Numbered from the stretch's first letter, positions 2,510 through 20,671 are shown. The stretch: DNA of 64,000 nucleotides from Fidelibacterota bacterium (GCA_028140795.1 JAOIOW010000003.1:60663-124662); one strand, 5' to 3'. Made by a program: numbers and translations. Notes: generated by a model from the letters alone, not told the origin.

Positions 2510-3573
2510 AACACGCTCAAACTTTCTTTAATTTGATCAAATGTGATATCTTTGCTGATTCTTGATTTACCAATTTCATCAAGTAAAATAAATCTAATTT
2601 TTTTCTCTCTAAATTTTTTGTCATTCTTAACAAAATTTATAAAAGTCTCTCTGTTATCAATATCAAGTTTTGGTAATTCAAATTTAGACAATAATTGAGT
2701 GGATATATCATATTCATCATTAGATAAATTTCCAAATTTATTGGAAAGATATAATGCGCATTTCATACCATAAAAAATTGCTTCTCCATGTAATAAATTT
2801 TTGTAATTAGTAAATGATTCAATTGCATGCCCAACAGTATGACCAAAATTCAGAATCATCCTTAATTCATTCTCATTTTCATCTTCACTAACAATATCGC
2901 TTTTTATTTCACAACATTGGATAATTATTTTTTGTAAAACATCTATATCTTTATTTTTAATTTTGATTGAATTAGCAACTAAATAATCAAAAAATTCTCT
3001 ATCATAAATGAAGCCGTATTTTACAACCTCTGCAAGAGCAGCTTGCAACTCTCTAGCTGGTAACGTTGATAAAAAATTGGTATCAATTTCTACAGCTATA
3101 GGCTGATATATTCTTCCAACCAAATTTTTACCAACCTTTAAATTAATTCCTGTCTTTCCTCCTATAGCAGAATCAACCATTGCAAGTAACGTGGTTGGAT
3201 ATTGAATGTATTTAATTCCCCTCATAAAAATTGATGATGCAAAGCCCGCAACATCTCCAACTACCCCTCCACCTACTGCAAACACTAATGATGACCTATC
3301 AAAATGTTTTTTTGCCATCTCATTTACAATTAAAGAAATAGATTCAAATGATTTTGCTTTTTCACCTTGATCAATCAAAAAAATATTTACATTAGGTAAA
3401 TTAGAAAGCTCGTTTATTTCATCTTTATATAGACTTAGAATCTCTTTTTGAGTAATTAACATACATTGTGATTTTGTTGACGATGCAAACTTTACAACTG
3501 AATTTTTGAAACCCTCAATCAAACTGATGTTATAGCTATTGTTTCCTAAATCAACTTTAATCTTATTGGACAT
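2506..3573 (-). CDS. aroB: 3-dehydroquinate synthase
   Basis: 'GGGVVGDVAGFASS', 'GGKTGINL' and 'NFGHTVGHAIE' motifs. 355 aa. Confidence 0.93.
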   Translation of the reverse strand: MSNKIKVDLGNNSYNISLIEGFKNSVVKFASSTKSQCMLITQKEILSLYKDEINELSNLPNVNIFLIDQGEKAKSFESISLIVNEMAKKHFDRSSLVFAVGGGVVGDVAGFASSIFMRGIKYIQYPTTLLAMVDSAIGGKTGINLKVGKNLVGRIYQPIAVEIDTNFLSTLPARELQAALAEVVKYGFIYDREFFDYLVANSIKIKNKDIDVLQKIIIQCCEIKSDIVSEDENENELRMILNFGHTVGHAIESFTNYKNLLHGEAIFYGMKCALYLSNKFGNLSNDEYDISTQLLSKFELPKLDIDNRETFINFVKNDKKFREKKIRFILLDEIGKSRISKDITFDQIKESLSVL

Positions 3574-4084
3574 TAATTATCTCCATTATTTGATTGCAGT
3601 TGTCCTGAATAGTCTGATGATCCGTAATAACCTCAATTTTGCATAATGCTTCATACTTTTGTTCTCTTTTTAATATAATTTCTTCAAATACCTCATCTTT
3701 ATTTTGGACATTTAATAATGGCCTAGAATTATCATCTTTAAGCCTATCTAGTAAGATATTTTTAGATGTTTTTAAATAAATGCAATGTTTTGAGCTTAAC
3801 AATTCGTAACTATCTTTGTGTGATACTGCTCCTCCACCAACAGCTATAACAGTATTTTCTTTTAAAATATGTTTTTGTAATTCAGCAAATTCTAACTTTC
3901 TAAAACTTTCTTCTCCCTTTAAAAATAGCTCATTTATGGACATATCAAATGACTTAATTAGTTCATCATCAATATCAATAAAATTCCATCCTAAGCTCAA
4001 AGAAAGAGCTTTTGCGGTGGAAGATTTTCCAGAACCCATCATTCCGATTAAGTATAGCTGATTAATATTTTCCACTGCTTTCAA
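3563..4084 (-). CDS. aroK: Shikimate kinase
   Basis: P-loop 'GMMGSGKSS', 'VIAVGGGAV', and a size of 173 aa. Confidence 0.9.
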   Translation of the reverse strand: MKAVENINQLYLIGMMGSGKSSTAKALSLSLGWNFIDIDDELIKSFDMSINELFLKGEESFRKLEFAELQKHILKENTVIAVGGGAVSHKDSYELLSSKHCIYLKTSKNILLDRLKDDNSRPLLNVQNKDEVFEEIILKREQKYEALCKIEVITDHQTIQDNCNQIMEIINVQ

Positions 4085-8622: not shown

Positions 8623-8882
8623 AATTCATTCCCTTCAATTTTCTTAGAAGCAGAAATTACACTTTGGTATATTTCTTTTAAATATTTTGCTTCTTTTTGA
8701 GAAAATCTTGCATCAATTCTAGCATAAATGGAATTTTCTCGCTTCGAATCTTCAATTGGTATATTATTCTTAGATTTGATTTCACCAATCTTTATAACAG
8801 GATCTAACCTATCTACTAAAAGGTCAAAAATCATATTATCAATGTTATCAATATTTTTTCTTTCATCATTTATTTCAATCAT
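8619..8882 (-). CDS. Chorismate mutase (AroQ class, monofunctional)
   Basis: Helical CM_2-like sequence 'IDNIDNMIFDLLVDRLDPVIKIGEIK...SKRENSIYARI'. I place the start at ATG 8882, preceded by GGAGG at 8891-8887. The track's longer start at 8909 lies inside the upstream hairpin and U-tract. Confidence 0.8.
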   Translation of the reverse strand: MIEINDERKNIDNIDNMIFDLLVDRLDPVIKIGEIKSKNNIPIEDSKRENSIYARIDARFSQKEAKYLKEIYQSVISASKKIEGNEL

Positions 8883-8891
8883 AATTCCTCC

Positions 8892-8924
8892 AAAAAAAAA
8901 CCCTAACATTTTTTGCTAGGGTTT
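8892..8924 (-). terminator. Intrinsic terminator hairpin plus U-tract (terminator arm of the Phe/Tyr attenuator)
   Basis: Minus-strand RNA reads AAACCCUAGC-AAAAAAU-GUUAGGGUUU followed by more U. The A9 run at 8892-8900 on the plus strand gives nine consecutive U, three of them in the stem. The U-tract abuts the GGAGG ribosome-binding site of chorismate mutase. Confidence 0.7.
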
Positions 8925-8950
8925 CTATAGTTTGTGATATAATTATTCTA

Positions 8951-9010
8951 TCAGGCGCCTATAGTCCCCCTGCATCTAAAATAGAAATAATAGTTGTTAA
9001 AATTTTTCAT
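8951..9010 (-). CDS. Candidate 19-aa Phe/Tyr-rich leader peptide MKNFNNYYFYFRCRGTIGA
   Basis: ATG at 9010, TGA at 8953-8951. Three Phe and three Tyr codons fall within codons 4-11. Codons 14-17 (AGGGGGACUAUAG, 8971-8959) can pair with CUAUAGAAACCCU (8930-8918), which overlaps the 5' arm of the terminator. Confidence 0.6.
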   Translation of the reverse strand: MKNFNNYYFYFRCRGTIGA

Positions 9011-9051
9011 CAGAGCATATTAGTGATAAAAATCTAATTGAGAAACAAAAA

Positions 9052-9813
9052 TTATTTTTTTAGGTTTTTTACAAAATTTTCAACAACACCCTTTTTTGTA
9101 TCTTTGAGAACTTTTTTTATAACTGCAGATCCAACTACAGCCCCATCTGAAAAACTATTAAACCAATTAACATCATCATTTGTGCTTATACCAAAACCTA
9201 CCATAAATGGCGTTTCGCTATTATCTTTTACTTTTGCTAAGTAGTTCTTCAAATTATTTTTTGAACTCAGGTCATTACCAGTAATACCTAAAATACTTAC
9301 AGCATATATGAGATCTCCTGCAAGTTTTGAAATTTTCTTAATTCTTTTTTCCGAAGTATTTGGAGCTACAAGAAGTATCGGAGAAATATTTTTATTCTTT
9401 AAATTATTACAAAATTCAACAGATTCATCAAGAGGTAAATCTGGTAGAATAACCCCATCAATTTCTGCATCATTACATTTTTTTATGAAATCCTTTGTAC
9501 CCATCCTAAGAATTGGATTATAATAACCCATTAGCGCAATAGGGACATCAGTTTCCTTTCTAATCTCCTTTACTTGTTCAAAAATTTCAAGTAGCGTAAT
9601 TCCATTTTTTAAAGCTATTTCGTTTGCTTCTTGAATAACTGGTCCATCTGCTTGAGGATCTGAAAAAGGAATACCTATCTCAATCATATCAGCTCCTCCT
9701 TTAATTGCTTCCAAAACTAAATTCTTCGTACTATCTTTATTTGGAAAACCTGCAGTAATAAATACTATTAATTTTTTAGAATCTGTTGCAAAAAGTTCTT
9801 TTATTCTATTCAT
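9052..9813 (-). CDS. trpA: Tryptophan synthase alpha chain
   Basis: '[19 protein letters not shown]' and 'GFGIS' motifs. Confidence 0.95.
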
Positions 9814-11018
9814 AATTCAATACCCAATTCCTTTGCAATAGTATTTATATCTTTATCTCCTCTTCCAGATAAATTCAAAATAACATGTTCATTTTTTTTG
9901 ATATTATTATTTTTATTTTTTAAATAAGCAACAGCATGTGCAGTTTCTAAAGCTGGAATTATTCCCTCTTTTTCAGACAACCACTTGAATGCTTCTAACG
10001 CTTCATCATCCGTTGCTGATGAATATTCAACTCTTTTGGTTTTTTGAAGATAACTGTGTTCTGGACCAATTCCTGGATAATCTAAACCTGCAGATAAAGA
10101 ATAAGGTAAAGCAATTTGACCATCCATACTTTGTAGTAACATTGATGCTGCACCATGTAATACACCAAATTCACCCTTCGTAAGAGTAGCAGCATGCTGA
10201 TTTGTATCAATCCCCTTTCCTGCAGCTTCAACTCCAACTATTTTTACATCATCATCAATGAAAGGATAAAATAAGCCAAGAGCATTAGACCCACCACCAA
10301 CACATGCTATAAGTCTATCAGGTAATTTTTTATTAGTCATATCTGTAAATTGTTTTTTTGTTTCAGTACCAATTACAGATTGAAAATCACGAACAAGCAT
10401 TGGGTATGGATGAGGTCCAACAGAAGAACCAATAATGTAGAATGTATCTTCTACATTTGTTACCCAATCCCTAATTGCTTCATTGGTAGCATCTTTTAAA
10501 GTTTTAGATCCAGAAGTAACAGGTATAACTTTTGCACCCATTAAATTAATTTTAAACACATTTAGCTTTTGACGCTCAATATCTTCCTCGCCCATATAAA
10601 CAATACATTCTAAACCAAATTTAGCAGCTGCTGCTGCAGTAGCTACACCATGTTGTCCTGCTCCTGTTTCAGCAATAATTCTTTTTTTTCCCATTCTATG
10701 TGCCAATAAAATTTGTCCAAGGGCATTGTTTATTTTATGTGCACCGGTATGATTTAGATCTTCCCTTTTAAGCCATACATTAAAACCTAGTTCTTCGGAA
10801 ATATTTTTAGCTAAGTATAATGGAGTTGGTCTACCTCCGTAATGTTTAAGCAAATTAAAAAATTCTTTTTGGAAATTTTTATCTTTTTTGCTCTTTAAAT
10901 ATTCCTGCTCTAATTCATCCAATGCAGGAATAAGAGTTTCAGGAACATATTTTCCACCAAATTCTTCAAAATGCCCATACTTATCAGGCATATTATATTT
11001 TTTAACTAAATTATCCAA
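9810..11018 (-). CDS. trpB: Tryptophan synthase beta chain
   Basis: '[11 protein letters not shown]' (PLP lysine) and 'GGGSNA' motifs. Confidence 0.97.
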
Positions 11019-11643
11019 AACTAAACTCCTTCTTTTTTGTTTGTTTTAAAATTTTGACAATCCTAAAGATTTTTGACTTACTTTTTAATCCAGGACTTTT
11101 TTCAACACCACTATTTATATCAACTGCATGAGGATTGATCTGATTAATACCATCCAAAATATTATTTTCATTTAAACCCCCTGATAGTATGATTGGAAGA
11201 TTGAATTTAACATTTTCAATTATTTTCCAATTAAAGATTTTACCAGTGCCTCCAAATTGATTTCTTGTTCTATTATCAAGCAGAATTGCGTGTACATCAT
11301 AATTATTTATTACATTTAAATCACTTTTTTTTGAAACAGATAAAGCTTTTATGACCGGAACTTTGAAATTATTACAAAATTCAGGTGTTTCATTTCCGTG
11401 TAGCTGAATTGCATCAAGATTTAATTCATTTATGACATCATTAATAATATTTTTACTCTCATTTACAAAAATGCCAATTTTTTTTAACCCAGAAGAACTC
11501 ATGCTGATTTTTTTTGCATTTTCTATATCAACACATCTTGGGCTTTTACCGTAAAATATCATCCCAATTGCAGTTGCCCCTGCATTTTTTGCATGCAAAG
11601 CGTCTTTATAATTAGTTATACCGCAAATTTTCAAATCTATCAT
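11011..11643 (-). CDS. trpF: Phosphoribosylanthranilate isomerase
   Basis: 'KICGIT', 'IQLHGNE' and position between trpC and trpB. Confidence 0.9.
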
Positions 11644-12398
11644 AACTCTTTTATAATTCGTTCAAGTTTTTTTCCGGGATTTTTACTTTTCATCAAAGAT
11701 GTTCCCATAAGTATGGCATCATATCCCAACTGCTCAACAATTTTTATTTTTTTAATACTTTTAAAACCACTTTCTGCAACTTTAAGCGAATCTTTAGGTA
11801 GTTTTGGAAAAAATCTCTCAAATCTTGAAAAATCAAGTTCCATTTTTTTTAAATTTCTACAATTCACGCCTACAATTGTAGGACTAAGCTCGTTAATAGC
11901 TAAAAGGTTTTTTCTATCGTGAATTTCTACTAATGTTTCCATTTTTTCATTTAATCCAAAGCTATAAAGGTCTGCCAAATCATTATAGTTCAAGGCTTCA
12001 GCAATTAATAAGAAAGCGTCAGAGCCATGGCTCATTCCTTGTAAAATTTGTTTTTTACTTATGATAAAATCTTTTTGCATAACAGGAATGTTCACTGCAT
12101 TTTTAATATCCTTTAAAAATTTAATATCACCATTAAAAAATCGTCTATCAGTCAGAACAGAAATAGCTGCAGCGCCAGCATTTTCATAATCTTTAGCAAT
12201 TTGAATATGTTCACCCTTTTTAAGAATTATTCCCTCACTTGGTGATGCAAATTTTATTTCTGCAATTATAGATATTTTGCCTCCTTTTAAAGCTTTTTTT
12301 AAACTGAGTCTTTTATAGTTGGAGCTTTCTAAATGTAGTTCAGGAATTTTCTTAATTTCTGTTTTTTTATGATTCAAAATCTTATCTAAAATATTCAC
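11640..12398 (-). CDS. trpC: Indole-3-glycerol-phosphate synthase
   Basis: 'IIAEIKFASPSEG', 'ISVLTD' and 'VGVNCRNL' motifs. Confidence 0.93.
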   Translation of the reverse strand: MNILDKILNHKKTEIKKIPELHLESSNYKRLSLKKALKGGKISIIAEIKFASPSEGIILKKGEHIQIAKDYENAGAAAISVLTDRRFFNGDIKFLKDIKNAVNIPVMQKDFIISKKQILQGMSHGSDAFLLIAEALNYNDLADLYSFGLNEKMETLVEIHDRKNLLAINELSPTIVGVNCRNLKKMELDFSRFERFFPKLPKDSLKVAESGFKSIKKIKIVEQLGYDAILMGTSLMKSKNPGKKLERIIKEL

Positions 12399-13390
12399 TT
12401 TTGAATACCTTTCAATACTTTAAGAGCAGATAACGAATCGACTGATTCTTCCGCTAAAGAATAACCTTCTTTTAAAGACGTTGCTTTACCTCCAACCATG
12501 ATTCCTGCAGCGGCATTCAGCAAAACTATATCTCTGTTAGGACCTTTTTTTCCATTTAAAATATCCAAAATAATTTTTGCATTAATATCTGAAGTACCTC
12601 CCTGTAAATCTTCATGTTTGGACAATGAAATTCCTATAGACTTTGGATCAAATTTTAAATTGATAATTTTACTATCATTTAAAAAATAAGAAATATTAGA
12701 ATCGCAAGTTGTAGTAAGCTCGTCAAGGCCATCGTCTCCGTTAAAAACCATAACATTCTTTGAACCTAAATTTTTTAAAACTTGTGTTTGAATTTTAGTC
12801 AATGATGGTTCAAAAACTCCCATTGCTTGATTTTTAACATTTGCAGGATTACATAATGGACCTAAAATATTGAAAACTGTTTTAATTTTTAATTTACTTC
12901 TAACATTCATAGCATTTTTTACAGCTGGATGAAAATTTGGAGCAAACATGAAACATATATTATTTTTTTCCAAACTTCGAATGCAATTTTCATTTGATTT
13001 ATTTATATCTACGTTCAATGCTTCGAGAACATCAGCTGAACCTGATTTTGATGTCATAGATCTATTACCGTGTTTAGCTACCTTTATTCCTGCTCCAGCC
13101 ACGACAATTGAGGATGCAGTTGAAATATTAAATGTCCCAGAATAATCTCCGCCTGTACCACACATATCAATAGCAGGAAAATTAAGATCTAATTCAATCA
13201 TAGTATGTCGCATAGCTTTTGCAAAACCAGTTATTTCATCAACTGTTTCTCCTTTTGACCTTAAACCAACTAATAAAGCTGCAATTTGAACGTCATCTAG
13301 ATTTCCTTTCATTAATTCCAGCATAATTTCAAAAGCTTCATTCTCGTTGAGATTTTCTTTTTTTACAACTTTTTTTATTGATTCAATCAT
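12395..13390 (-). CDS. trpD: Anthranilate phosphoribosyltransferase
   Basis: 'CGTGGD', 'KHGNRSMTSKSGSADVLEALN' motifs. Confidence 0.95.
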   Translation of the reverse strand: MIESIKKVVKKENLNENEAFEIMLELMKGNLDDVQIAALLVGLRSKGETVDEITGFAKAMRHTMIELDLNFPAIDMCGTGGDYSGTFNISTASSIVVAGAGIKVAKHGNRSMTSKSGSADVLEALNVDINKSNENCIRSLEKNNICFMFAPNFHPAVKNAMNVRSKLKIKTVFNILGPLCNPANVKNQAMGVFEPSLTKIQTQVLKNLGSKNVMVFNGDDGLDELTTTCDSNISYFLNDSKIINLKFDPKSIGISLSKHEDLQGGTSDINAKIILDILNGKKGPNRDIVLLNAAAGIMVGGKATSLKEGYSLAEESVDSLSALKVLKGIQK

Positions 13391-13954
13391 CTATATTTCC
13401 AAAAAATTTTTGATTATGACTTTACCATCTTTTGTAGCAATCGATTCAGGGTGAAATTGAACTCCATAAAGATTTGAAGTCTTGTGTTTAAGTCCCATGA
13501 TGGTTTTATTATCAGTTTCAGCAATTACTTCCAAGCAAGTAGGTAAAGAGGCTTTTTCAACAATTAGCGAATGATATCTAGTGGCATTAAAGCTATCATT
13601 TATACCTTTAAATAATTTTGAACCAAAATGATTAACATTTGAGACTTTACCATGCATAATTTTTTTCGCTTGAACTATTTCACCACCAAAAGCATATCCA
13701 ATTGCCTGATGTCCCAGACAAACACCTAATATTGGAACTTTTTGATAAAAATGTTGAATGACTTCAACAATATTTCCTGCGTTTTCAGGTTTTCCCGGCC
13801 CAGGAGAAATAACTATATGGGAAGGATTAATTTCTTTAACATTTTTTAAGGACGTTTCATCATTTCTTTTGGTAACAATATCTTTTTTTATATCACCAAT
13901 ATATTGCACAAGATTATAAGTAAAGCTATCGTAGTTATCGATAACAAGTATCAT
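13391..13954 (-). CDS. trpG: Anthranilate synthase component II (glutamine amidotransferase)
   Basis: 'GVCLGHQAIG' catalytic Cys and 'QFHPES' motifs. Confidence 0.93.
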   Translation of the reverse strand: MILVIDNYDSFTYNLVQYIGDIKKDIVTKRNDETSLKNVKEINPSHIVISPGPGKPENAGNIVEVIQHFYQKVPILGVCLGHQAIGYAFGGEIVQAKKIMHGKVSNVNHFGSKLFKGINDSFNATRYHSLIVEKASLPTCLEVIAETDNKTIMGLKHKTSNLYGVQFHPESIATKDGKVIIKNFLEI

Positions 13955-15432
13955 TTTATCAACCCATTTTCAGCAAGATCAATTGCAGCATTCATGACTT
14001 TTGCTTTATTTACAGTTTCATCATACTCTTTTGATGGAATCGAATCATAAACAATACCAGCTCCAGCTTGAAAGTATGCAATTTCGTTTTTTAAAATCAT
14101 AGTTCTTATTGAGATGCAAGTGTTTAAGTTTCCGTTAAAATCTATAAAACCAATCGCTCCTGAGAAAATACCCCTACTATCATTTTCTAATTCATTAATT
14201 ATCTCCATTGCTCTTATCTTTGGTGCTCCTGAAACTGTACCGGCAGGAAAACCACTTTTTAAAGCATCAAAAATGTTTTTATCTTTCATAAGTTTTCCTC
14301 TGACATCTGAAACGATGTGCATCACATGTGAATACATCTCAATATTCATTTTTTCTTTAATTTTGACACTATCAAATTCAGAAACTCTTCCAACATCATT
14401 TCTTCCTAAATCAAGCAACATCAAGTGTTCAGCTAATTCCTTTTTATCGTTTAACAAATCTTGAGCATTTCTTTCATCTTCAATTGCATTTTTACCCCTC
14501 AATCTAGTACCAGCTATTGGACGAATTTCAACTTCACCTTCTTGAACTTTAATCATAAGCTCAGGAGAAGCACCAATAACATCAAATGAATCAATTTTTA
14601 AATGGAACATATATGGTGAAGGATTAATAGACCTTAATGCTCTGTAAACATTCAAAGGTTCTGATAAGGTTTTTCGCTCAAATCTTTGACTCAAAACAAC
14701 TTGAAAAATATCGCCAGACTTAACATATTTTTTTGCTTTATTTACAATTTTTTCAAATTCACTTTTTTTAAAGTTAGAGATTGTCGGAAATGATTTTGTA
14801 ACTAATGGAGTTCTAAATTCGTGATTCGAATGTAATAAATTTCCAATTGAATCAACTCTAGAATTAGCCTCATCAAAAAGTTCATTTAAATTTTCACTTC
14901 TTTCAAGATTGACGTTTGATACTACAATGGCGTCACCATTTAAGTGATCAAAAACTATTATGTCTTCAAAAAGCATAAATTTTGAATCAGGTATTTGTAA
15001 ATATTTCGTTTTTTTAACTGGAACATTTTCGAAAAAATCAATCATTTCATATCCAAAGTAACCAACAATTCCTCCTGTAAAATGTGGAAGTTGATCTAGT
15101 TTTTGGCTTTTATGTGAATCATTTAAATTTTTCAAAAAATCAAAGAAGTTAGCATCTATTTTTTTTCGTTTACCATTAATAACCTCAAATAAAGACCTCT
15201 GGTCATATTCAAAGATCCTTGATGGATTTATGCCAACATAAGAATATCTACCATTTTTCTTTGCTTTCTCCACAGATTCAAGAATGAATCCGTAATCGGA
15301 GTGCATTGATAAATTTGCCCAAGCTGCAGTAGGTGTAATAGTATCTGCCATTATTCTTTTGAAAAAAGGCACAACTTTTCTTCCATCTTTTGCAAGCAAG
15401 TTAAATTCTTTTTTTGATAATTTATTTTTCAT
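13951..15432 (-). CDS. trpE: Anthranilate synthase component I
   Basis: 'LESVE', 'PSPYMF', 'GTVSGAPKIRAMEII' and 'GAGIV' motifs. Confidence 0.95.
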   Translation of the reverse strand: MKNKLSKKEFNLLAKDGRKVVPFFKRIMADTITPTAAWANLSMHSDYGFILESVEKAKKNGRYSYVGINPSRIFEYDQRSLFEVINGKRKKIDANFFDFLKNLNDSHKSQKLDQLPHFTGGIVGYFGYEMIDFFENVPVKKTKYLQIPDSKFMLFEDIIVFDHLNGDAIVVSNVNLERSENLNELFDEANSRVDSIGNLLHSNHEFRTPLVTKSFPTISNFKKSEFEKIVNKAKKYVKSGDIFQVVLSQRFERKTLSEPLNVYRALRSINPSPYMFHLKIDSFDVIGASPELMIKVQEGEVEIRPIAGTRLRGKNAIEDERNAQDLLNDKKELAEHLMLLDLGRNDVGRVSEFDSVKIKEKMNIEMYSHVMHIVSDVRGKLMKDKNIFDALKSGFPAGTVSGAPKIRAMEIINELENDSRGIFSGAIGFIDFNGNLNTCISIRTMILKNEIAYFQAGAGIVYDSIPSKEYDETVNKAKVMNAAIDLAENGLIK

Positions 15433-15439
15433 TTTATAT

Positions 15440-15466
15440 AAAAAAAAACCCCGATAAACGGGGTTT
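15440..15466 (-). terminator. Intrinsic terminator hairpin plus U-tract (terminator arm of the trp attenuator)
   Basis: Minus-strand RNA reads AAACCCCG-UUUAU-CGGGGUUU followed by more U, giving nine consecutive U overall. The tract ends 7 nt before the trpE ATG at 15432. Confidence 0.75.
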
Positions 15467-15492
15467 CAAAATCTTGTTAACATGAACTTGGC

Positions 15493-15552
15493 TTACAAGA
15501 CAGATCCCCCGACTTGAAAATACCACTTCCATGTTTTTGAGTTATTTTTCAC
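15493..15552 (-). CDS. Candidate 19-aa trp leader peptide (M)KNNSKTWKWYFQVGGSVL
   Basis: GTG at 15552 is the only possible start in this frame, because an in-frame TAA lies 4 codons upstream. Trp codons are at 15531-15529 and 15525-15523. TAA is at 15495-15493. Codons 14-16 contain CGGGG (15511-15507), which can pair with CCCCG in the 5' arm of the terminator. GUCUUG/CAAGAU can extend that pairing. Confidence 0.5.
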   Translation of the reverse strand: MKNNSKTWKWYFQVGGSVL

Positions 15553-20038: not shown

Positions 20039-20671
20039 ATGAACCCTAAAATACTAAAAATTATCATTGCTGGAATGGCCATTTGTATTGTCTTTTTATC
20101 GTACAAATTCAATGAAGTAAATAACGATTTAAAGAAATACAAAGAGTATTATAAAGACTTATCAATTATGTATCTAAATGAAGTAATTGAAGCTCCTAAA
20201 CTTGAAGCGCCATCAGCCGAAGATATGAAAGTTACAACAATAGATTTTGATAGCAACATGTTACAATTCTCCGATCTTGAAAATAATAATTTCAGTATTC
20301 AAAATTTTAAGGGAAAAAATCTTTTTATCAACTATTGGGCAACTTGGTGTAATCCTTGTTTAGCCGAAATGCCCTACATGGCTGAGCTGTATGAAAAATA
20401 CAAAGATGAAGAAAATATTATATTTTTGTACTTATCTAGAGAAAAATTAGAGACAATAAAAAATTATGTACCAAAAGATGAAAGTCTTCAAAAACTGCCA
20501 ATTTACAAGATTATCACAGATGATGAATTCTTTGCAACTTCAGGTATTCCTACTACCTTCATTGTTAATTCAGATGGAGAAGTTATTGTAAAGGATCTTG
20601 GAAGCGCTTTTTGGAATGACGAATCTGTTTTCAAATTTATTGATAACCTAATTGGTAAAAATGAAATCTAA
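20039..20671 (+). CDS. Membrane-anchored TlpA/ResA-like thiol:disulfide oxidoreductase
   Basis: N-terminal TM segment 'ILKIIIAGMAICIVFLSY' and thioredoxin motif 'YWATWCNPCLAEMP'. Confidence 0.85.
   Translation: MNPKILKIIIAGMAICIVFLSYKFNEVNNDLKKYKEYYKDLSIMYLNEVIEAPKLEAPSAEDMKVTTIDFDSNMLQFSDLENNNFSIQNFKGKNLFINYWATWCNPCLAEMPYMAELYEKYKDEENIIFLYLSREKLETIKNYVPKDESLQKLPIYKIITDDEFFATSGIPTTFIVNSDGEVIVKDLGSAFWNDESVFKFIDNLIGKNEI

Follow-up and report, generated by a model that had tools for sequence, protein, structure and literature searches.

Two predicted leader-peptide attenuators in series in an aromatic amino-acid supraoperon of a Marinimicrobia bacterium

We analysed a 64,000-nucleotide (nt) stretch of DNA from a Fidelibacterota bacterium (GCA_028140795.1, JAOIOW010000003.1:60663-124662; hereafter the window), which comes closest to single-cell and metagenome assemblies of Candidatus Marinimicrobia (SAR406). 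The window carries 17 aromatic amino-acid genes in one minus-strand array, with two putative leader attenuators, L1 and L2, in series. The genes behind each leader match its codons: trpEGDCFBA follow L1, a Trp leader, and the genes for chorismate mutase (CM) and DAHP synthase, aroAECKBQ, pheA and tyrA follow L2, a Phe/Tyr leader. Judging from their anatomy and predicted folding, L1 and L2 are very probably two ribosome-mediated leader-peptide attenuators, each guarding one module of a 17-gene aromatic supraoperon. Their parts, including the leader open reading frames (ORFs), are listed below; positions are counted along the window, and all coordinates for L1, L2, trp and aro are on the minus strand.

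15587-15559, minus: putative sigma-70-type promoter of L1, with TTGCAA (15587-15582), a 17-nt spacer, TAATAT (15564-15559) and 6 nt to the GTG; its activity is predicted
15552-15440, minus: L1, whole element, preceding trpEGDCFBA
15552-15493, minus: L1 leader ORF VKNNSKTWKWYFQVGGSVL, from GTG at 15552 to TAA ending at 15493, 19 codons plus stop
15511-15459, minus: L1 antiterminator, with an outer helix between the G-run (15510-15506) and CCCC of the terminator 5' arm, and an inner helix GUCUUGU/ACAAGAU
15467-15440, minus: L1 terminator GAAACCCCG-TTTAT-CGGGGTTTT followed by T9, a 9-bp stem with 5 GC pairs, 7 nt from the trpE ATG (15432)
9051-9011, minus: trpA-L2 spacer, 41 nt, with an invariant -10-like TAATAT (9022-9017) 6 nt before the L2 ATG
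9010-8892, minus: L2, whole element, preceding CM, DAHP synthase, aroAECKBQ, pheA and tyrA
9010-8951, minus: L2 leader ORF MKNFNNYYFYFRCRGTIGA, from ATG at 9010 to TGA ending at 8951, 19 codons plus stop
8974-8914, minus: L2 antiterminator, pairing the G-run (8970-8966) with CCCU of the terminator 5' arm, with an inner helix CUAUAG/CUAUAG capped by a small apical hairpin
8926-8892, minus: L2 terminator AGAAACCCTAGC-AAAAA-ATGTTAGGGT followed by T9, directly adjoining the GGAGG ribosome-binding site (8891-8887) of CM

An earlier note on this DNA had described the two leaders as built to one plan, and most of its anatomical description was borne out. Both ORFs comprise 19 codons plus stop (60 nt; 15552-15493 and 9010-8951), and both contain a GGGGG run at codons 14-16 (15510-15506 in L1, 8970-8966 in L2). 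The U-tract lies, as described, no more than 7 nt from the next ribosome-binding site or start codon, at 7 nt from the trpE ATG in L1 and at 0 nt from the GGAGG of CM in L2. The Trp codons of L1 are codons 8 and 10 (W-K-W; 15531-15529 and 15525-15523), with a vestigial Y-F pair retained behind them, and the regulatory codons of L2 are F4, Y7, Y8, F9, Y10 and F11 (F..YYFYF; 9001-8999 and 8992-8978). The placing of these codons in the first half of each leader holds only loosely, as they occupy codons 8 and 10 in L1 and the range 4-11 in L2. Among 11 distinct sequences of L2 orthologues the six Phe/Tyr codons are invariant, while codons 2, 3, 6 and 14 vary, and an N6Y change yields a seventh aromatic codon.

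Nascent RNA was folded after cutting before the 3' arm of the terminator. The predicted antiterminators have free energies of -19.0 (L1) and -18.7 kcal/mol (L2), compared with -13.5 (L1) and -15.3 kcal/mol (L2) for the terminators. In both leaders the two structures are mutually exclusive, because the C-run of the terminator 5' arm is the pairing partner of the G-run; folding thus upheld the earlier proposal of pairing between the G-run and an AAACCC(C/U) arm. When nt 1-34 or 1-40 were masked, corresponding to a ribosome on the regulatory codons, the antiterminator was retained in both leaders. Masking of nt 1-60 or 1-72, corresponding to a ribosome at the stop codon, led to its loss, with L2 at 0 kcal/mol.

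These foldings suggest how the leaders may work. A shortage of the cognate charged tRNA would stall the ribosome at Trp codons 8 and 10 of L1, or at Phe/Tyr codons 4 and 7-11 of L2, with its leading edge short of the G-run at codons 14-16. The free G-run could then pair with the C-run of the terminator 5' arm, stacked on the inner helix, so that no terminator would form and RNA polymerase would read on. With an ample supply of the amino acid, the ribosome would reach the stop codon and cover both G-run and inner helix, allowing the AAACCC.../...GGGU9 terminator to form and transcription to end just before the first structural gene. The attenuation logic, read here from the anatomy, is classical but lacks a conserved 1:2 hairpin. 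A classical 1:2 pause hairpin, in which the Trp-codon region pairs with GCCAAGUUCAUG, appeared in the full-length minimum-free-energy fold of L1. It was rejected as a conserved element, since its partner is changed at 7 of 12 positions in locus L001, a 91%-identical relative in which the hairpin is not kept.

The elements stand out from the background of the window. In 128 kb (the window, both strands) GGGGG occurs 18 times and AAACCC 21 times; the chance of at least two TGG codons among 19 is ~0.013, and that of at least six Phe/Tyr codons among 19 is ~0.005-0.03. When intergenic DNA was scanned for hairpins with a free energy of -10 kcal/mol or lower and a run of six or more T behind them, L1 and L2 were the only sites returned in the 64-kb window. 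L1 and L2 each combine an ORF with a codon cluster, a terminator, an exclusive antiterminator, ribosome-position geometry and cognate genes.

Two smaller features lie on or beside the leaders. An alternative frame of 35 codons, MEVVFSSRGICLVSQVHVNKILKPRLSGFFFI, runs at 15530-15436 (minus, +2 relative to L1), from an ATG inside ACATGG to a TAA shortly ahead of the trpE ATG. This frame crosses the antiterminator and terminator, contains no Trp codons and is probably fortuitous. Upstream of L2, a mini-ORF ATG-CTC-TGA (9018-9010, minus) has a stop codon that overlaps the L2 start (TGATG, to 9008), and an ATG-NNN-TGA or ATG-NNN-NNN-TGA is kept in all L2 variants despite a changing middle codon. It may serve re-initiation after trpA, or may merely belong to the TAATATG box.

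Several points weigh against leader-peptide control. No Rfam family reached its gathering score in the window, Trp_leader (RF00513), Phe_leader (RF01859) and Bacteroid-trp (RF01692) included. At E ≤ 10 the window gave only unrelated or terminator-driven matches, and the sole amino-acid-operon leader family among them was Leu_leader, at the L2 terminator (E = 0.3). Neither leader has a Shine-Dalgarno sequence and L1 starts with GTG, so that translation rests on a predicted near-leaderless start. The ribosome footprint used in the masking was assumed from E. coli, and the clade carrying L2 shows too little sequence variation for a real covariation test of its helices. For L2, the Rfam result and the missing Shine-Dalgarno sequence, together with a Phe/Tyr-rich frame that could arise by chance in AT-rich DNA (p ~0.03), would also fit a different account, in which the hairpin is the terminator of the trp operon, the small ORF is fortuitous, and some other antitermination factor (protein, tRNA or metabolite) drives the aro genes. 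We consider this very improbable. The U-tract adjoins the CM ribosome-binding site, and a promoter downstream of it would have no space. All aro transcripts, from whichever start, must therefore cross L2, and the terminator must be conditional for any aro expression. Furthermore, the Phe/Tyr codons are invariant amid changing neighbours, with one change adding a Tyr codon, and the G-run, stop-codon geometry and antiterminator match those of the Trp leader family described below. No T-box or riboswitch was detected in the Rfam scans of the window, and the combination of a Phe/Tyr leader with a terminator is almost absent elsewhere in the comparison set, which consists of about 80 fetched loci of a few to 20 kb each (three-digit designations such as L001).

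The only other match of that scan lies in the Cytophagales locus L010 (minus strand, near 14732), where a short ORF, MQFHLFFFFLSYFSCFRF, is followed by a terminator; this element is probably a Phe leader-peptide attenuator.

On sequence grounds, L1 belongs to a family of trp leaders that occurs throughout Marinimicrobia, and represents it in the window. Outside the window clade the family was found upstream of trpE in L065, L068 and L075-L079, where trpA is 64-69% identical to that of the window. The leader peptides upstream of trpE are as follows (each but the first shown to its stop codon):

L065: MKNKFYFWFWYF... (continuing)
L068 and L074: MNNMKTNNYYSWYWFFSRKGVL
L076: MINMNTQNYYSWYWFFSHEGVS
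L078: MIDMNNQNFYSWYWYFSHEGVS
L079: MINMNTKNFYSWYWFFSQEGVS
L075: MNRTDTRKFNNWCWYINQQGVS
L077: MKLILKSIKTTNQLNWWYYHGGTL

A common topology was observed in nine lineages, consisting of W-x-W, aromatic codons, 2-5 further codons, a G-run, the stop codon and then AAACCCCG...CGGGGU(n). All nine members have the two-helix antiterminator, with the G-run just before the stop codon. In five well-aligned members the antiterminator positions are 86.7% paired, compared with 33-44% in slid controls, and one compensatory change from G-C to A-U is present. A covariance model built from five distant trp leaders, containing no sequence of the window clade, matched L1 over its full length (15552-15440; 34.4 bits, E = 4.7e-5), and an nhmmer profile built without the window clade matched it at E = 1e-7. 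A second, broader covariance model was dropped, as L077 aligned to the first model only by way of a long local insertion. No further leaders of the G-run design were found in the window or in the fetched Marinimicrobia loci (whole genomes were not scanned).

L068, L075, L076, L078 and L079 share a -35 element of the TTGG.. type and a TTAATAT -10 element, located 6-8 nt upstream of the leader ATG. The position of the -10 box, 6-8 nt before the leader start codon, suggests that the leader mRNA is near-leaderless.

Within L1 itself, the apical loop of the antiterminator is a local hotspot: GCCAAGTTCATG in the window (15493-15474) and GCCTTTTCTACG in L001 (2322-2341) differ at 7 of 12 positions, while the leader outside the hotspot is ~95% identical between the two. 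A further conserved element of the family loci is a palindrome, GTATATCGTAAATATACGAT, located between a divergent ArsR-type HTH gene and CM in L076 (~3590-3612), L078 (~3692-3714) and L079 (~3100-3122); it is probably an operator site.

L2 has a narrower distribution. The earlier note had set recurrence in related genomes as a test, and L2 followed by CM was indeed found again, in L001, L035-L044 and L072; it occurs only in these relatives, whose trpA is at least 87% identical to that of the window. Eight loci of sister lineages (L066, L068, L071, L073, L074, L076, L078 and L079; trpA 64-71% identical) have no L2. In these eight the trpA stop overlaps the pheA start, pheA-tyrA-DAHP synthase-aroAECKBQ continue without a spacer, and CM sits upstream of the trp leader; one mixed Tyr/Trp/Phe leader (YYSWYWFF) guards the fused supraoperon. 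L065 shows the same gene order, with pheA-tyrA after trpA frameshifted (assembly). By parsimony over the sister gene orders, the fused supraoperon with one leader is ancestral, and the layout with two checkpoints, together with L2, is derived. As judged from this comparison, L2 is a derived insertion specific to the window clade, at the former trpA/pheA overlap.

In L075 the trp operon now stands alone, the aro module having been lost, and its trp leader is poor in Phe/Tyr codons. What is left of pheA in this locus is a 56-aa ORF after trpA (9099-9307), a remnant of the C-terminus with 46% identity to residues 131-186; sensor kinase genes on the opposite strand follow it.

The number of Phe/Tyr codons around the Trp codons was compared with the fate of pheA-tyrA:

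pheA-tyrA behind the leader, no L2: 5-6 (YYSWYWFF, FYFWFWYF)
pheA-tyrA lost (L075): 2
pheA-tyrA absent (L077): 2
pheA-tyrA gated by L2 (L1 of the window): 2

Leader codon content follows operon content. The separation is perfect, but it amounts to roughly two versus three independent lineages.

The earlier note had further suggested that L1 and L2 look like copies of one template. The shared architecture was upheld, and extends to a feature it had missed: TAATAT, a hexamer occurring at 0.0009 per nt, stands exactly 6 nt before both start codons. Both leaders contain TATTTT followed after 6-7 nt by GGGGGA, an AAACCC arm and a U9 tract. The proposed M-K-N start can be read in both leaders, in L1 on the assumption that its GTG is initiated with fMet. 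It was rejected as a common signature, as 2 of 53 large ORFs in the window start with MKN and 11 of 53 with MK, the L2 orthologue in L072 starts with MRD, and distant L1 orthologues start with MNN, MNR, MIN or MKL.

At the sequence level the evidence for homology is marginal. With blastn (word size 7) no match between L1 and L2 was found, pairwise nhmmer (--max) gave E = 26, and by direct reading the ungapped identity past the first nine nucleotides of the ORFs is 6/31. Profile hidden Markov models (HMMs) of the family that include L1 returned L2 as the best non-self same-strand match in 128 kb (E = 0.048 and 0.014). The HMM without the window clade gave L2 8.4 bits (E = 0.054), level with terminator-only matches, and the HMM scores of L2 are close to that of an unrelated terminator at 18.8 kb (9.2 bits). 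The covariance model of distant trp leaders matched L2 from the ATG to the end of the U-tract at 21.0 bits (E = 0.038), skipping the structured core, with noise at 18.6 bits. With the same model the genuine trp leader of L077 scored 19.3 bits and other copies of L2 16.7-19.8 bits. By these scores L2 fits the trp-leader family as well as a divergent true member does, both being near noise. In comparisons against dinucleotide shuffles, L1 versus an orthologue at 64% trpA identity gave z = 8.5, L1 versus L2 z = 4.6, and L2 versus mixed leaders of the ancestral type z = 5.4-6.7. The value of 4.6 was rejected as evidence of descent, as it is inflated by the shared U-tract and terminator.

Two origins of L2 can be weighed against these data. 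The mixed ancestral attenuator may have been copied, together with its core promoter, behind trpA and then re-coded, with the Trp codons disappearing from the copy and most of the Phe/Tyr codons from the original; alternatively, L2 may have been assembled by convergence to the same lineage-specific design. Duplication is favoured by the fine detail of the likeness (TAATAT at 6 nt, 19 codons, TATTTT...GGGGGA, the two-helix antiterminator, the AAACCC arm and U9), by the rank of L2 as top non-self same-strand match for the HMMs that include L1 and likewise for the clade-free covariance model, where the true but divergent leader of L077 does no better, by its resemblance to mixed ancestral-type leaders, which is at least as great as that to L1, and by the vestigial Y-F pair after the Trp codons of L1. 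However, pairwise similarity is at background level, the profile scores are near that of a generic terminator and the covariance score near noise, with the structured core of L2 skipped in the alignment. In addition, L2 must be younger than the split from lineages at 64% trpA identity, yet L1 is nearer to its orthologues there than to L2; duplication would thus require strongly accelerated divergence. All the shared features are, besides, ones that an attenuator of this design needs in order to work, and the change from the ancestral order CM-leader to leader-CM is not reached by a simple rearrangement. On balance we give duplication with re-coding somewhat less than an even chance. The fuller scenario of sub-functionalisation, in which the mixed YYSWYWFF leader gating an ancestral fused operon of 17 trp, phe, tyr and aro genes was duplicated along with its core promoter, the upstream copy kept Trp, the downstream copy at the trpA/pheA overlap kept only Phe/Tyr, and two serial checkpoints came to act on one transcript, is put forward only tentatively and seems rather unlikely as a whole.

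Whether trp transcription reads into L2 bears on how the two checkpoints combine. The earlier note had argued for a serial arrangement from the lack of a hairpin between the trpA stop and the L2 ATG. Scanning of the 41-nt spacer indeed revealed no terminator-like hairpin. The two modules are contiguous on the same strand with no terminator before L2, an arrangement of low discriminating power because terminators are rare genome-wide. Read-through is supported by this lack of a terminator and by the ancestral fusion; the argument from the missing hairpin is weak, and an internal promoter is possible. Co-transcription is argued better comparatively, since trpA overlaps pheA with no spacer in the sister lineages.

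Against a purely serial arrangement, the missing hairpin is weak evidence because canonical terminators are rare in the window genome and its relatives, L1 itself lies 39 nt behind a same-strand acylase gene that lacks a terminator, and the next gene after tyrA follows within 10 nt. An AND-gate that is strictly serial would also be physiologically awkward, as Phe starvation alone could not induce pheA in the absence of Trp starvation, which argues for an internal promoter or a second input. The TAATAT before L2 may be the -10 element of such a promoter, in which case gating would not be purely serial. At the far end of this argument, L1 and L2 would head two independent adjacent operons: a promoter of L2's own, in the spacer or in the 3' end of trpA, would give nearly all aro transcription, and the series would be a by-product of genome compaction. 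The invariant TAATAT 6 nt before the L2 ATG has the geometry of the conserved promoter of the trp-leader family, divergent gene starts in the window often carry a -10-type box 6-17 nt ahead of the start codon, and a TTGAAA-18-AAAAAT match is present in the trpA 3' end (9083-9054). Likewise, L1 has a putative promoter of its own despite following the acylase gene without a terminator, and the awkward AND-gate would be avoided. However, the -35 region before the L2 TAATAT is poor (TTTCTC at 17 nt, or only a -35-like TTG at 20 nt), and the sigma-70 scan was at chance in this AT-rich DNA (95 matches, 96 expected), a level at which it cannot decide on an internal promoter. No polymerase stop was found between trpA and L2, and the sister lineages co-transcribe trpA with the aro genes via overlapping ORFs. 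We regard fully independent operons as rather unlikely, though far from negligible. Most likely, aro transcripts come from two sources: the ancestral one, read-through from the trp operon, and a weak internal promoter with its -10 box 6 nt from the L2 start codon. Serial read-through likely contributes, probably alongside another input.

Boxes of the -10 type (TATAAT, TAATAT, TATATT, TAAATT) were observed 6-17 nt before the starts at 20039, 53507, 24487, 41123, 45611 and 55055, which belong to genes opening transcription units. Such spacing hints that 5' untranslated regions in the window organism are often very short or missing. Strong canonical terminators are nearly confined to attenuators in the window and in L001, L039, L066, L068, L073 and L075-L077, with most gene ends lacking them.

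The genes around and between the leaders are as follows:

18003-15592, minus: penicillin-amidase-family (acylase) gene, upstream of L1
15432-9052, minus: trpE-trpG-trpD-trpC-trpF-trpB-trpA, from NCBIfam equivalog matches and ORF coordinates; the ORFs overlap or abut
8882-805, minus: aro/phe/tyr module with CM, class II DAHP synthase, aroA, aroE, aroC, aroK, aroB, type II dehydroquinase, pheA and tyrA; all ORFs overlap or abut
8882-8619, minus: CM, monofunctional AroQ, with its start behind GGAGG(N5)ATG
2509-2078, minus: type II dehydroquinase (the aroQ of aroAECKBQ)
2081-1515, minus: pheA, PDT domain only, 188 aa
ending at 805, minus: tyrA

The trpA stop codon lies at 9054-9052, and 41 nt separate it from the L2 ATG. 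A CM start at 8909, given by the longest ORF, was rejected because it falls in the terminator loop; the true start is at 8882, after the GGAGG. The 188-aa pheA product matches the PDT catalytic domain only and lacks the ACT regulatory domain, and those of relatives have 186-190 aa. Allosteric feedback by Phe may thus be absent in the window organism, and because pheA has no ACT regulatory domain, transcriptional attenuation may be the main control of Phe synthesis. In L033 (metagenome-assembled genome CM1_5m.P33), which is otherwise nearly identical to the window, and in L065, the trp and aro genes are broken up by many frameshifts, which probably reflect misassembly and not pseudogenes.

The type of mechanism proposed for L1 and L2 is that of E. 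coli trpL and pheL, i.e. leader-peptide attenuation. L1 resembles E. coli trpL in its short ORF with two Trp codons, its alternative hairpins, the U-tract just before trpE and control by ribosome position. It differs in falling outside the Rfam gathering scores, with Trp_leader not among the matches at E ≤ 10, in lacking the conserved 1:2 pause/anti-antiterminator hairpin, and in having an antiterminator of two stacked helices nucleated by G5:C4 and a probably near-leaderless GTG leader. The nearest catalogued RNA family is Bacteroid-trp (RF01692), a trp leader-peptide attenuator upstream of trpE in the same FCB superphylum. Trp leaders of the WWW type with terminators are common in the fetched Bacteroidota loci, and the RF01692 model matched the Bacteroidaceae locus L025 (50.6 bits) and no Marinimicrobia leader. 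In contrast to Bacteroid-trp, the leaders of Marinimicrobia have W-x-W with Tyr/Phe codons on either side, and their antiterminator is formed by a G-run and a C-run.

In Bacillus subtilis, the trp attenuator inside the aro supraoperon is mediated by TRAP, and acts on transcripts from the upstream module and from an internal promoter. This is the closest analogue of the arrangement in the window, with trp and aro in one array and an attenuator between modules. The order is mirrored, with aro upstream and trp downstream, and the TRAP protein is used, whereas the window has two leader peptides of different amino-acid specificities. The supraoperon is described, in the account of Xie et al. (2003) given in PMC1173090, as a trp operon inserted into an aro operon. 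Attenuators in aromatic supraoperons have also been predicted for Streptococcus pneumoniae, with two units, and for the aro...tyrA > trp array of Desulfovibrio vulgaris (Song et al. 2005, PMC1173090, Table 7). These are precedents for more than one attenuator per aromatic supraoperon and for trp fused to phe/tyr/aro; they are database predictions in other phyla with the attenuator type unstated, and one mixed W/Y/F leader split into two is not described there. For L2, the closest functional analogue, going by the account of Neshat et al. (2014) given in PMC11802643, is aroR of Corynebacterium glutamicum, a Phe-Tyr-Phe leader peptide attenuating the aroF (DAHP synthase) operon. Both are mixed Phe/Tyr leaders of a common-pathway operon. 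On the same account aroR heads a free-standing operon, whereas L2 lies inside a supraoperon behind trpA and governs ten genes, including pheA and tyrA; the organisms are unrelated, and the two are likened by function.

Our literature search returned no paper on attenuation in Marinimicrobia, and none joining the term 'internal attenuator' with leader peptides. The two-switch array is an uncatalogued variation on a textbook mechanism and not a new mechanism. To our knowledge, almost all examples of leader-peptide attenuation are single switches heading operons in cultured model bacteria. Here SAR406, an uncultured, streamlined marine lineage, carries a trp-leader family that lies outside all Rfam models, and one clade has a second, internal Phe/Tyr checkpoint in mid-array. 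The interest lies chiefly in the comparative series, in which leader specificity follows operon content: a mixed W/Y/F leader on the fused operon, and a W-dominated leader where the phe/tyr genes were lost or are separately gated. If confirmed, this natural series would offer a compact system for studying how attenuator specificity evolves with operon content, and how two ribosome-sensing checkpoints combine, as a serial or as a dual-input gate.

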